NCBI RefSeq assembly: GCF_000284115.1
Contig: NC_017080.1
Span: 3,120,001-3,152,000 of the forward strand
Length of the DNA stretch: 32,000 bases
Source: Phycisphaera mikurensis NBRC 102666
GTDB taxonomy: Bacteria; Planctomycetota; Phycisphaerae; Phycisphaerales; Phycisphaeraceae
Direction: 5' to 3'
Notes under the pieces: generated by a model
Told to the model about the DNA's origin: nothing
Seen by the model: only the letters and a program-made list of their open reading frames with translations
The model's database searches: none
Translations under genes and position numbers: made by a program
In this document: piece by piece, positions 3,287 to 32,000 of the stretch
Layout: every line of letters begins with the position of its first letter
Numbering within the stretch: position 1 is the first letter of the stretch

Positions 3287-3617
3287 GGAGAGAGCCGAAG
3301 CGACGTGTGGTCGACGCGCTGGAGGAGGGCTGCACGGCTCGCGAAGCCCGACGCGCTGCGCTCGCGGCCGCACCGCGGAGAGACGAAGAGCCGAAGACGG
3401 CCGCGCATCGCCGCAGGCAACAACGCCCCTGCTCCTCCCCGCCTCCCCGCCTCTCCGCCTCTTCGTCTCTTCGTCTCTCCGCCTCCCCGTCTCTTCGTCT
3501 CTTCGTCTCTTCGTCTCTTCGTCTCTTTGGCTCTTCGTCTCTTCGTCTCTTCGTCTCTTCGTCTCTTCGTCTCTCCGTCTCTCCGTCTCTCCGTCTCTCC
3601 ACCTCTCCGCCTCCCCG
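3287..3617. repeat. Composite octamer-repeat element, copy A (variant unit GTCTCTTC)
   Basis: Short purine arms are GGAGAGAGCCGAAGCGACG (3287-3305) and GGAGAGACGAAGAGCCGAAGACGG (3377-3400). They are followed by 22 head-to-tail 8-nt pyrimidine units from 3441 to 3616 (GCCTCCCC, GCCTCTTC, GTCTCTTC x many, GTCTCTCC x4, ...). It lies in the larE-mcsA spacer. Confidence 0.9.
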
Positions 3618-3694
3618 CCGCCAGCCCACCGACTCCCCGCCCTACCGTCCAAGGCCGCATCGCTCTCCCGGTTCGATCCGCAAGGCGCTCTCTC

Positions 3695-10245: not shown

Positions 10246-10530
10246 CAGGAGCAAGCGAAGAAGCGAGGAAGCGAAGAAGCGGAGAAGTCAGGCAACGCAG
10301 CGGCAAAGCCGCTCGCTCCGAGAGGACCACGATCGCAAGCCTCCACCCGCAGTCTTCTCCAGATCGTCACTTCGCCGCTTCTTCACTTCTTCACTTCTTC
10401 GCTTCTTCGCTTCTTCACTTCTTCACTTCTTCACTTCTTCACTTCTTCGCTTCTTCGCTTCTTCGCTTCTCCGCTTCTTCGCTTCTTCGCTTCTCCGCTT
10501 CTCCGCTTCTCCGCTTCTCCGCTTCTCCGC
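10246..10530. repeat. Composite octamer-repeat element, copy B (gltB-gltD spacer)
   Basis: The left purine arm is GCAAGC + GAAGAAGC GAGGAAGC GAAGAAGC GGAGAAGT (10251-10288). The spacer has hairpin AGCGGC-aaa-GCCGCT (10299-10313). Then come 19 exact-period 8-nt units at 10377-10528 (7x GCTTCTTC, 6x ACTTCTTC, 6x GCTTCTCC, arranged in blocks), ending 2 nt from the gltB stop codon. Confidence 0.92.
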
Positions 10531-13500
10531 TCATCCCAGCCCCAACTCGAGCGCGCCCGGCTGATTCTCCACCGCCGTCGCCCGCTTCTGCCGCTCGAGC
10601 ACCCGGCGGTAGTCGATGGGCATCACCTTCTTGAAGAGCTTCACGCTCTTCTCCCAGTTCTGCAGCACCTTGTCGGCGACGGCGGAGCCGGTGAGGCGGG
10701 CGTGCTCGACGATGAGGTGCTGGAGCTCCTCGGCGTCGCCGAGGGCGTCGGGGCCGTCGATGCGTTCGAGCTCCACCATGCCGAGGTTGCAGTGCTGGAG
10801 CAGCGTGTCGTCGCGGTCGAGCACGTAGGCGATGCCGCCGGACATGCCGGCCGCGAAGTTGCGGCCGACCCCGCCGAGGATGACGGCCCGGCCGCCGGTC
10901 ATGTACTCGCAGCCGTGGTCCCCGACGCCCTCGACCACCGCCAAAGCCCCGGAGTTGCGGACGCAGAAGCGCTCGGCCGCCACGCCGCGGAAGTAGGCCT
11001 CGCCGGAGGTCGCCCCGTAGAGCGCCACGTTGCCGATGAGGATGTTGTCCTCGGCCTTGAAGCCCGAGGCGGCCGGCGGCTTGACCACGATGCGGCCGCC
11101 GGAGAGCCCCTTGCCGACGTAGTCGTTCGCGTCGCCGGTGACGGTGATCGACACGCCGCGGGTGAGCCACGCGCCCAGGCTCTGGCCCGCGGAGCCGCGG
11201 AGCCGCACGTCGATGGTGTGCGGCGGCAGGCCGCCGGCGCCGTGGCGCTTGCTGACCTCCCAGGAGAGCATCGTGCCCACGGTCCGGTTGAGGTTGGTCA
11301 CCGGCAGCTCGATGCTCACCGGCGTCTGGTGCTCGAGCGCCGGCATCGCCTCGGCGATGAGCCGGTTGTCGATGTGGCCCTCGACGCCGTGGTCCTGGCC
11401 CTCGCACTTGAACGCCTTCGCGTCGGCACGCGGGCCCTTCGCCGGGAGCAGCAGCGCGGAGAGGTCCAGGCCGTGGGCCTTCCACGCGTCGACGGCCGCC
11501 CGGGTGCGGAGCAGCTCAACGCGGCCGACGAGCTCCTCGATCGTCCGCACGCCCATCTTGGCCATGTAGCCGCGGGCTTCCTCGGCGACGAGGAAGAGGT
11601 AGTTGAGCACGTGCTCGGGCGTGCCGTTGAACTTCGCCCGCAGGTCGGGGTCCTGCGTGCAGACCCCGACCGGGCAGGTGTTCAGGTGGCACTTGCGCAT
11701 CATGATGCAGCCCATCGTGATCATCGGGGCGGTCGAGAAGCCGAACTCCTCGGCCCCCAAGCACGCGGCGATGACCACGTCGCGGCCGGTCTTGAAGCCG
11801 CCGTCGGTTTCGAGCGAGACGCGGGAGCGGAGCCCGTTGAGCACCAGCGTCTGGTGCGCCTCGGCCAGCCCCAGCTCCCAGGGCAACCCGGCGTGCTTGA
11901 TGCTGGTGAGCGGGCTGGCCCCCGTGCCGCCGTCGGCGCCGGAGATGAGGATGTGGTCCGCCTTGGCCTTGGCCACGCCCGCGGCCACGGTGCCCACGCC
12001 CACCTCGGCGACGAGCTTGACGCTCACGTCGGCGACGGGGTTGCTGCGCTTGAGGTCGTGGATGAGCTGCGCGAGGTCCTCGATGGAGTAGATGTCGTGG
12101 TGCGGCGGCGGGCTGATGAGGCCCACGCCCGGCGTCGAGTGCCGGATGCCCGCGATGTACGGATCGACCTTGAAGCCGGGCAGCTGCCCGCCCTCGCCGG
12201 GCTTGGCGCCTTGAGCGATCTTGATTTGCAGGCGGTCGGCGTTGGCCAGGTAATGGCTGGTGACGCCGAAGCGGCCCGAGGCGATCTGCTTGATGGCGGA
12301 CCGCTTGCTCTTGACGCTGCCGTCGGGGTACTGGGCGAGCGAGAAGCGCTTCGGGTCCTCGCCGCCCTCGCCGGAGTTGGACAGCCCGCCCACGCGGTTC
12401 ATCGCCAGCGCGAGCGTCTCGTGGGCCTCCTTGGAGAGGGCGCCCAGGGACATGGCGCCGGTGCGGAAACGCTTCACGATCTCCTTGGCGGGCTCGACCT
12501 CGTCGATCGAGATCGCGACCGTGGGCAGGCCGTCCAGCTCGCGCTCCACCACGGCGTGCGGGTCGGGCCGGGCCTCGATCTCTTCGGGCGTCAGGCGGGC
12601 CTGCCCGGGCACGCCGGGCGCGGTGAGCGCTTCGGTGAAGGCCTCGCCGTCGCCGTCGAAGGGCCCGTCTTGCAGGTCGCCGTGGGTCTTCGGCTTGGGC
12701 TCGTCGGCGTAGCGCATCTCCAGCAGGCCGCGGAGCGAGCCCTGGTGCTTCGCGTCGTCGTTGCAGAAGCGGGCGTACTGGTCGTAGGCGACCCGGCTGT
12801 TCGAGCGGCTCGCGGCCTGCAGGCTCGCGACCACCTGCGGGCTCCAGCCGTGCCGCTCGCCGCCGGGCCGCCAGGCGTACTCGCCGGGGTTGGGCAGCTG
12901 GGCGAGGCGCACGAGCTCGCGGCGCGGGAAGCCGATCGCGTGGCGCCGCAGCGACTCCGCGGCGATGACGTCCAACCCGGCTCCGGAGATCCGCGAGGCG
13001 GTGCCGACGAAGGCCCGGTCGATCGTCTCCTGCCCGAGGCCGACGGCCTCGAAGATCTGGGCCCCGTGGTAGCTGGCGAGCGTGGAGATGCCCATCTTGG
13101 ACATCACCTTCTGCAAGCCGAGGCCGATGGATTTCGCGAGGAGCCGCTCGATCTTCTCGTCGGTCAGCGTCTCGTCGAGCACGCCCTCCTCGCGGAGGCC
13201 GCGGATCGCCTGCACCGCGAGGTACGGGTTCACCGCGTCGACGCCGTACCCGAAGAGCGTGGCGAAGTGATGCACCTCGCGGGCCTCGCCCGATTCGAGC
13301 ACGAGTCCGATCCGCGTGCGGCTGTGCGTGCGGACGAGGTGGTGGTGGACGGCGCCGACGGCGAGCAGCGAGGGGATGGCGACCCGATCCGCCGAGACGC
13401 CGCGGTCGGAGAGCACGAGCACGCGCGAGCCCGCGGCGATCGCCGCGTCGGCCTCGTCGCAGAGCCGCTGGAGCGCCGCCCGCAGCGGGTCGCCCGCGGC

Positions 13501-29436: not shown

Positions 29437-29636
29437 CAGCGGCTTCGCCGCTTATGGCTGCGCCAGGCAAGCGGGGAAGCGAGCAAGCGGGGAAGCGGAG
29501 AAGTTAGGAAGCGAAGAAGTCAGAAACGGACAAGAGCGGCCCTGGTCCGACTCTCACTTTCCCGCTTCTCCACTTCTTCGCTTCCCCGCTTCTTCGCTTC
29601 CCCGCTTCTTCGCTTCCCCGCTTCTTCGCTTGCTTC
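29437..29636. repeat. Composite octamer-repeat element, copy D (rplY-pth spacer)
   Basis: The left end CAGCGGCTtcGCCGCTtatGGCTGCGCCAGGCAAGCG (29437-29473) is 33/37 identical to copy C. Six purine octamers follow (GGGGAAGC GAGCAAGC GGGGAAGC GGAGAAGT TAGGAAGC GAAGAAGT, 29473-29520). After a spacer come about 10 pyrimidine octamers at 29555-29634 (GCTTCTCC, ACTTCTTC, alternating GCTTCCCC/GCTTCTTC), ending in CGCTTGCTTC. Confidence 0.9.
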
Positions 29637-29693
29637 AAGACCCCAAGCCACCCGCGTCTTGCGGCGTCATCCACCCCGCCACCACCGCTCCCC

Positions 29694-30269
29694 ATGAAGC
29701 TGATCATCGGCCTCGGCAACCCCGGCCGCGAGTACGCGGACACCCGGCACAACGCGGGTTTCATGGTGCTCGAACGGTTCGCCACGCGCCACGGGCTCGC
29801 CGGCCCGCGGCAGCGGTTTCACGCCGGCACGATCGACGGGAGCGTGACCGTCGGGGGTGCTCCGCACAAGCTGCTGCTCGTGCAGCCGCTCACGTACATG
29901 AACCGCTCGGGCCAGAGCGTCCGGGAGGCGGTGGACTTCTACAAGGTCGCGGTCAAAGACGTGCTGATCGTCGTCGACGACATCGCCTTCGGCTGCGGCG
30001 ACCTGCGCTTGAAGGCCATGGGCTCCGCCGGCGGCCACAACGGGCTCAAAGACGTCGAGCGGGTGCTGGGCACGCGGGCGTACGCGAGGCTGAGGATCGG
30101 CATCGATGCCCCGGGCCGCATCCCGCAGGTCGACTACGTCCTCGGCAGGTTCACCGCCGATCAGCGGGAGCGGCTGGATCCGGCGCTCGACGAGGCTTGC
30201 CAGGCCGTGGAGGCTTGGCTGACTCTCGGGATCGAGAAAGCGATGAACAAGGTGAACGACCGCTCGTGA
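29694..30269 (+). CDS. pth: Peptidyl-tRNA hydrolase
   Basis: The product begins MKLIIGLGNPGREYADTRHNAGFMVLERFA and later has GGHNGLKDV. It is 191 aa with the canonical Pth signature. Confidence 0.95.
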   Translation: MKLIIGLGNPGREYADTRHNAGFMVLERFATRHGLAGPRQRFHAGTIDGSVTVGGAPHKLLLVQPLTYMNRSGQSVREAVDFYKVAVKDVLIVVDDIAFGCGDLRLKAMGSAGGHNGLKDVERVLGTRAYARLRIGIDAPGRIPQVDYVLGRFTADQRERLDPALDEACQAVEAWLTLGIEKAMNKVNDRS

Positions 30270-30281
30270 GCCGGGTGGGCT

Positions 30282-30682
30282 GCGTGGCGTCGCCACGCAG
30301 TGACCGCGGCCAGACTGGCATCGAGAGCTGAGCGGCGACGCCGCTCTGTCTGCTTGTGCGCGAAGGAGCTGCATCGCGGCTCGGACAGCGTGGCGTCGCC
30401 ACGCAGCGACCGCGGCCAGGCTGGCTGCGAGAGCTGAGCGGCGACGCCGCTCTGTCTGCTTGTGCGCGAAGGAGCTGCATCGCGACTCGGACAGCGTGGC
30501 GTCGCCACGCAGCTAGCGCGGCCAACATGGCTTCGAGAGCTGAGCGGCGACGCCGCTCTGTCTGCCTTGTGCGCGAAGAAGCTGCATCGCGGCTCGGACA
30601 GCGTGGCGTCGCCACGCAGCTAGCGCGGCCAGGCTGGCGGAGAGAGCTGAGCGGCGACGCCGCTCTGTCTGCTTGTGCGCGA
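30282..30682. repeat. Tandem array of about 106-nt units (106, 106, 107 nt + about 82-nt partial), each carrying two perfect 17-nt palindromes
   Basis: Unit starts are at 30282, 30388, 30494 and 30601. Each unit contains GCGTGGCG-T-CGCCACGC and GAGCGGCG-A-CGCCGCTC (30282-30298 and 30330-30346 in the first unit). The array fills the spacer between the pth stop (30269) and the pckA stop (30693). Confidence 0.93.
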
Positions 30683-30692
30683 CGGGGCTGGG

Positions 30693-32000
<1,308 letters not shown>

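Follow-up and report, generated by a model that had tools for sequence, protein, structure and literature searches.

What is the tandem array that fills the space between the convergent genes pth and pckA in Phycisphaera mikurensis NBRC 102666, and does it serve these two genes? The genome consists of a chromosome of 3.80 Mb (73.3% G+C) and a plasmid of 81 kb, and the window analysed here is a stretch of 32,000 nt at chromosome positions 3120001-3152000. Positions below are those of the window unless C1, for the chromosome, is given. A sequence-only reading of the window had described the array as about 106-nt units carrying eight perfect 17-nt palindromes, and had offered as roles a bidirectional terminator or RNA stabiliser, an array of sites for a dimeric protein, or a REP-like genomic repeat captured in tandem. 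The array and its two neighbours are as follows.

29694..30269, plus strand: pth (peptidyl-tRNA hydrolase), from the ORF list; Pept_tRNA_hydro, Pfam PF01195, E 2.4e-62.
30282..30690, no strand assigned: tandem array of three full units and one partial unit, from Tandem Repeats Finder (TRF), unit spacings and a unit-by-unit print.
30693..32000, minus strand: 3' part of pckA (ATP-dependent PEP carboxykinase), which runs off the window; PEPCK_ATP, Pfam PF01293, E 1.2e-181.

TRF reports the array at 30282-30690 with a period of 106, 3.8 copies, 92% matches and a score of 683, and the repeat search of the window gives start-to-start unit spacings of 106, 106 and 107. The first 17-mer (palindrome 1) occurs exactly four times in the window, starting at 30282, 30388, 30494 and 30601, and the second (palindrome 2) also exactly four times, starting at 30330, 30436, 30542 and 30649; none of either is expected in shuffled sequences. 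These results bear out the period and the eight perfect palindromes, the exact positions confirm the distances of 48 and 58 nt between palindrome centres, and the ORF list and array coordinates agree with a start 12 nt past the stop codon of pth, which is the last gene of a prs-ctc-pth run. The end of the array, placed before at 30682 and short of the pckA stop codon (30693-30695), needs correction: TRF homology runs to 30690, homology to the linker consensus plausibly extends past it to 30694, and by eye the degenerate last linker is flush with pckA. The spacer is therefore repeat from end to end, and the view that the array fills it stands.

A coding reading of the array was rejected, since periods of 106-109 do not keep to multiples of three and the units differ from one another by indels. 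A CRISPR reading was also rejected. The alignment of the units upholds the earlier view that their variable segments are related to one another; every unit segment is homologous, no unique spacers are present, and the repeat of the genome's own CRISPR array (chromosome 768789-772775) is unrelated.

Each unit joins, in opposite orientation, two palindromic arms of 36 nt that have diverged from each other and that each nest a perfect 8-1-8 palindrome. Palindrome 1 lies in arm A and palindrome 2 in arm B, which is a diverged inverted copy of arm A; the arms are 78% complementary and are separated by an apex of 1-3 nt (repeat search, three inverted repeats in the window). A linker of 33-35 nt follows arm B, so that a short gap and a long linker alternate along the array, in the following order.

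30278..30313, plus strand: arm A of unit 1, with palindrome 1 at 30282-30298; its first 4 nt are not conserved.
30315..30350, plus strand: arm B of unit 1, with palindrome 2 at 30330-30346; an inverted, diverged copy of arm A.
30351..30383, plus strand: linker of unit 1 (33 nt), conserved over the 5' two-thirds and variable in the remaining 3' third.
30384..30419, plus strand: arm A of unit 2, with palindrome 1 at 30388-30404 (repeat search).
30421..30456, plus strand: arm B of unit 2, with palindrome 2 at 30436-30452; paired with arm A of the same unit in the predicted fold.
30457..30489, plus strand: linker of unit 2, part of a 105-nt hairpin with arm B and the next arm A.
30490..30562, plus strand: unit 3, arms A and B on either side of a 3-nt apex, which hold the palindromes 30494-30510 and 30542-30558 (repeat search).
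30563..30596, plus strand: linker of unit 3, 34 nt, with one extra C (unit print, alignment).
30597..30669, plus strand: unit 4, arms A and B, which hold the palindromes 30601-30617 and 30649-30665 (repeat search).
30670..30692, plus strand: terminal partial linker, which degenerates into the pckA stop codon (TRF, unit print).

In the predicted RNA folds, arms A and B of unit 2 form a 73-nt hairpin of -54.8 kcal/mol (z -6.2), and in the alternative register a 105-nt hairpin of -72.7 kcal/mol (z -6.25) is made up of arm B, the linker and the arm A that follows. The long hairpin of the two arms is predicted to be more stable than two local palindrome hairpins, both as RNA (-54.8 versus -29.6 kcal/mol) and as DNA (-29.7 versus -20.4 kcal/mol). 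The predicted fold of the whole spacer reaches -281 kcal/mol when read in the sense of pth and -246 kcal/mol when read in that of pckA. The proposed extension of palindrome 1 by CGCGG/CCGCG pairing was not retained: it is not conserved, the stretch of linker concerned is a variable block, and the folds pair the two palindromes with each other. Between 29400 and 31200 no terminator-like site with a U tract (Rho-independent) was found on either strand, and no sigma-70-like promoter was found in the spacer region. A search of Rfam at a permissive E-value matched the array only to microRNA hairpin models, at 26-32 bits as against gathering scores of 85-200. Among 45 aligned units, compensatory change was seen in none of the 28 predicted pairs, the units being too alike.

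The array is not alone in the genome. A BLAST search of the unit against its own genome and exact counts of the palindromes, which were the checks proposed from the sequence, gave 120 matches that resolve into 15-16 arrays of 2-7 units and 3-4 fragments, with nearly all palindromes inside arrays. Palindrome 1 has 63 exact copies in the genome, one of them outside the arrays, and palindrome 2 has 78, none of them outside. The sole solitary copy of palindrome 1 (C1:764699) lies about 4 kb upstream of a CRISPR-like array (C1:768789-772775), which has about 60 repeats with a period of about 66. All loci of this 106-nt family are intergenic and chromosomal, the plasmid being without any, and the family amounts to about 8.1 kb in 14 TRF arrays. 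The earlier treatment of the locus as possibly unique and functional is thus overtaken: there are about 15 such arrays, among which the pth-pckA locus has no special status, and at least three other, unrelated families of hairpin arrays occupy similar sites. What does fit is the suggestion of a REP-like repeat captured in tandem, as this is a dispersed, genome-specific family of inverted palindromic units.

Most units are 106-109 nt long, and variants of 85 and 77 nt also occur, the former five times at 1.641 Mb (C1:1640837-1641343) and the latter six times at 2.854 Mb (C1:2853841-2854387). Both variants have lost most of arm A, and their copies are nearly identical and have been amplified locally inside otherwise normal arrays. 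The edges of the arrays are ragged and degenerate, with left edges clustering near the apex and right edges near the end of the linker; no shared insertion target was seen at the edges. At the 2.524-Mb array (C1:2524620-2524657), the upstream ORF ends 38 nt inside the array, and its last codons and stop appear to be derived from the repeat.

Among 57 full units, about 80% of the columns are at least 97% invariant, and variation is gathered in about eight blocks, several of them multi-allelic. The sequence-only reading placed the divergence after the first palindrome, which is indeed variable; it is not the sole site, as the apex varies as well, and so do three bases in arm B and the linker's 3' third. 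Conservation is highest in the palindromic 8-1-8 dyads, each abutted by a conserved GACAG (TGTC on the other strand), and rare changes strike the palindromes about four times less often (P=0.001), a figure that is partly biased as the units were anchored on palindrome 2. This conservation fits some constraint, and a function for the host or for the element itself is possible. Identity is 93.0% within arrays and 91.4% between arrays, a small difference with a permutation P<0.0005. Each of the 57 units differs from every other, and their variable blocks show no linkage, so that the units are combinatorial mosaics; homogeneous copies are found only in the sub-arrays of deletion variants. Such mosaics imply that short tracts are exchanged often, or else that hypervariable blocks sit in a unit that is otherwise constrained.

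The gene context of the arrays was examined with genes called crudely by third-position G+C, which gave 1973 genes, with 19% of the gaps convergent and 19% divergent. Eight of the 16 loci of the 106-nt family lie in convergent gaps (enrichment P=0.005), seven are co-directional, and the single divergent one is a fragment. The class of the 627-kb locus is uncertain, as the 552-nt gap in which it lies received no gene call. Several of the arrays are flush with the stop codons of both neighbours, like the one between pth and pckA. The other hairpin-array families, of which TRF and clustering revealed at least three, have periods of about 103, 139 and 46/200 nt and occupy 12, 9 and 4 loci, respectively. 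Examples are C1:47461, 528061 and 1576906 for the family of about 103-128 nt, C1:128800, 456624 and 3477490 for the 139-nt family, and C1:350011, 2370910 and 3711885 for the 46/200-nt family. When the four families are pooled, 21 of 39 arrays are convergent (P=1e-6) and only one is divergent (P=0.003). Meanwhile, no more than 21 of the 373 convergent gaps (about 6%) carry any array, and the arrays are therefore not a general requirement of such gaps. The orientation of the 106-nt arrays relative to the upstream gene is not constant across loci, and its concordance with the replichore (12 of 16) is not significant (Fisher P=0.12). No recurrent or paralogous neighbour gene was found beside the arrays.

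Other repeats were seen in the window and beyond it. In the gap between ctc (L25) and pth, at 29469-29636, runs of a purine-rich 8-nt unit face runs of their complement, and the stretch 29440-29660 is a giant hairpin of facing octamer runs (-123.6 kcal/mol, z -10.1); together with the 106-nt array on its 3' side, pth thus has hairpin repeats on both sides. The facing-octamer design is repeated at 10248-10531, and about 11 loci of the octamer family occur genome-wide. A pyrimidine-rich 8-nt unit stands 23 times in tandem at 3434-3619, with a higher order of 24 nt (TRF), and a 336-nt tandem repeat forms three blocks within 4 kb at C1:1345941-1349771.

Outside this genome, the 106-nt family was not found in 263 related genomes. 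A BLAST search of 40 relatives showed it to be absent apart from one 38-nt match at chance level, and a covariance model built from 45 units gave no family match in 120 genomes of the order, representing 83 genera. A pattern scan of the GTDB species representatives returned only eight single chance matches, covering the specified bases alone, and JGI metagenome contigs, plasmids and phages yielded no family match. A congeneric genome was sought by Pth identity among 143 genomes of the taxonomic family and none was found; sister MAGs encode Pth proteins that are 84-89% identical. The ctc-pth pair is syntenic in the relatives, where pckA does not lie downstream of pth, and the orthologous spacer is therefore absent there. 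Judged by these sequence searches, the 106-nt family is private to this genome among the genomes searched.

In known REP systems, mobilisation is usually ascribed to a RAYT, that is, a REP-associated tyrosine transposase. The genome encodes two clear Y1_Tnp genes above the Pfam cut-off, which resemble REP-associated tyrosine transposases (NF047646) below the NCBIfam cut-off.

C1:3005658-3006344, plus strand: RAYT-like Y1 gene 1, lying between two inversely oriented sets of a 14-nt palindromic motif, 2-3 copies per side.
C1:3573591-3574352, minus strand: RAYT-like Y1 gene 2, flanked by a 20-nt terminal inverted repeat.

Each of the two flanking motifs has about 20 copies in the genome and neither resembles the array palindromes, of which no copy and no array was found near the Y1 matches in this genome. 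As both RAYT-like genes are flanked by other palindromes, the usual route of REP mobilisation is unsupported for the 106-nt family.

How does the family compare with palindromic repeats of other bacteria? On whether the unit belongs to a known repeat family, a point that the sequence-only reading had raised, the answer is yes in kind, as it is BIME/REPIN-like, and no in sequence, as no match exists in Rfam and public collections. Enterobacterial BIME-2 clusters are tandem pairs of y and z2 REPs, REP325 being an example; in them a REP alternates with an inverted REP over several tandem copies, and the linkers are by turns short and long (Ton-Hoang et al. 2012, PMC3333891). The 106-nt family shares with them palindromic units of 30-40 nt paired in inverse orientation (here arms of 36 nt), the alternation of short and longer linkers in tandem copies (here an apex of 1-3 nt and a linker of 33-35 nt, repeated 2-7 times at 15-16 loci), the extragenic position at gene 3' ends, and a copy number that varies by locus. 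In contrast to BIME-2, with which it has no similarity in sequence, it lacks the GTAG tetranucleotide on the 5' side of the palindrome foot, and it is confined to one genome among those searched; a possible further contrast is that units within one array are nearly as different as those of separate arrays. It also departs from BIME-2 and the REPIN-RAYT systems in that no cognate RAYT gene is flanked by its units, and single or paired copies outside arrays are almost lacking, whereas these number hundreds per genome in REP/BIME and REPIN systems.

A closer parallel in layout is offered by Pseudomonas fluorescens SBW25, which has 16 ordered tandem REPIN clusters (Bertels and Rainey 2011, PMC3116915). 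There, as here, a hairpin doublet of two inverted REPs is repeated in tandem with flanking sequence, in about 16 clusters per genome. However, most REPINs of SBW25 are solitary and each group has a cluster beside its own RAYT, both of which are missing in the 106-nt family, and the arrays of the latter are longer, with up to seven units. In Di Nocera et al. (2013, PMC3733652), the CGTC-tagged REP superfamily is described as including REP families without a dedicated transposase, and its REPs as having a stem of 8-9 bp that starts with A/T pairs, a loop of 4-5 nt and an unpaired tag of the CGTC type. By that account, the 8-bp stem, the head-to-head dimers and the want of a dedicated transposase are features in common, and the TGTC after each palindrome of the 106-nt family is among the listed degenerate forms of CGTC. 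By the same description, the stems here are unlike those of the superfamily in being all G+C, without A/T in the first two pairs, the loop has 1-3 nt rather than 4-5, and clusters are the rule here and rare in the CGTC families.

MIRUs and other dispersed bacterial minisatellites (PMC3914561) likewise consist of one homologous unit of about 50-100 bp in tandem at tens of intergenic loci of one chromosome. Locus-specific copy number and deletion variants of the unit are further points of agreement, and the description as a dispersed minisatellite fits the 106-nt family. MIRUs are not known to be built from inverted palindromic units, unlike this family. Taken in kind, the 106-nt family adds a species-private case to the clusters of intergenic palindromic repeats that other bacteria have long been known to carry.

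We therefore consider the array to be, probably, one locus of a genome-private, non-coding family of palindromic repeat clusters, a selfish or tolerated minisatellite whose effect as a transcript barrier or stabiliser would be incidental. A dedicated device for pth and pckA seems unlikely. Such a bidirectional terminator or mRNA 3'-end stabiliser, recruited for the converging transcripts in a 73% G+C genome with few U-tract terminators, would agree with an array that is flush with both stop codons, with very stable predicted folds on both strands, with a spacer that has no canonical intrinsic terminator, and with the roughly three-fold enrichment of arrays in convergent gaps; in addition, REPs have been hypothesised to act in transcription termination and mRNA stabilisation (PMC3733652). 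However, about 94 in a hundred convergent gaps do without any array, four to seven units far exceed the need of a terminator, the arrays are ragged in copy number and at their ends, they vary in how they are oriented to the upstream gene, there is neither a U tract nor covariation, and the enrichment at 3' ends would be expected equally from simple tolerance.

Binding of the arrays by a dimeric DNA-binding or nucleoid protein, or cruciform and HU-RNA contacts as for E. coli REP325, with about 140 dyads in about 15 clusters organising the chromosome, is to our mind quite improbable. The perfect 8-1-8 dyads being the best-conserved part of the unit, the spread of the clusters round the chromosome with none on the plasmid, and the weak orientation trend with the replichore (12 of 16) speak for it, and there is a precedent in REP325, six repeats of two palindromic units that act together with HU and naRNA4 when the nucleoid is condensed (Qian et al. 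2015, PMC4550694), by which such clusters can have a nucleoid role. However, that trend falls short of significance (P=0.12), no candidate protein or associated gene was found beside the arrays, the absence of the family from all relatives searched would make the system very young, and three unrelated families in the same niche favour a generic effect of tolerance or structure over a sequence-specific reader. Still further down in probability, and hardly to be expected, is a cluster of genes for small structured RNAs, or a precursor RNA of many hairpins that is processed. The stable predicted hairpins (z about -6) and the report that about 80% of E. coli REPs are transcribed (PMC4550694) are compatible with it; against it are the want of an Rfam family beyond sub-threshold microRNA-hairpin noise, of compensatory change (0 of 28 pairs) and of a promoter-like site, the nearly equal folding of both strands, and the restriction of the family to one genome.

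If the array is a tolerated minisatellite, its history may be sketched as follows. The self-complementary units can pair in two registers, and slippage and unequal or ectopic recombination between them would let arrays lengthen, shorten and swap segments. Arrays would persist where they do least harm, that is, in promoter-free gaps between convergent genes or after stop codons. A pth or pckA transcript that enters the array would, as a side effect, fold into hairpins of -55 to -73 kcal/mol per unit, which, by analogy with REP elements in other bacteria, would stand in the way of 3' exonucleases and of read-through. The array may thus act as an incidental two-way insulator rather than as a dedicated device.

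Some observations sit uneasily with the minisatellite reading. The usual route of REP mobilisation, which would account for dispersal, is unsupported; the population of singlets and doublets that is typical of REPs and REPINs is missing; the mosaic units seem at odds with the locus-wise homogeneity reported for BIME-2 (PMC3333891); and the conservation of the palindromes would agree with some constraint. It is conceivable, if distinctly unlikely, that the family is more than junk, either as (a) a transposase-independent or trans-mobilised element that inserts beside its own copies, or as (b) a set of about 15 platforms with about 140 dyads, read by a dimeric protein or an HU-RNA system. Under (a), arrays built from a genome-wide pool of variant units would explain the mosaics, the unlinked blocks and the variable junctions of 1-3 nt. 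Under (b), purifying selection would act on the palindromes and on the conserved linker portion, leaving a few blocks free to vary.

On the reading that we prefer, of a tolerated repeat-cluster family, the consequences are mainly for annotation and for the study of this organism. ORFs of 45-120 aa and longer cross the array on several frames of the ORF list; annotation should mask the pth-pckA spacer, like the sister loci, as sequence of a repeat family and predict neither ORFs nor small-RNA genes there. The arrays could also serve as VNTR markers in the strain typing of Phycisphaera mikurensis. The general picture of REP/BIME-type elements is left unchanged by the 106-nt family. Nevertheless, with at least four unrelated hairpin-array families packed in convergent gaps, and the 106-nt family without a visible transposase, the organism is a compact case for how palindromic clusters seed loci and why they settle at the 3' ends of genes.
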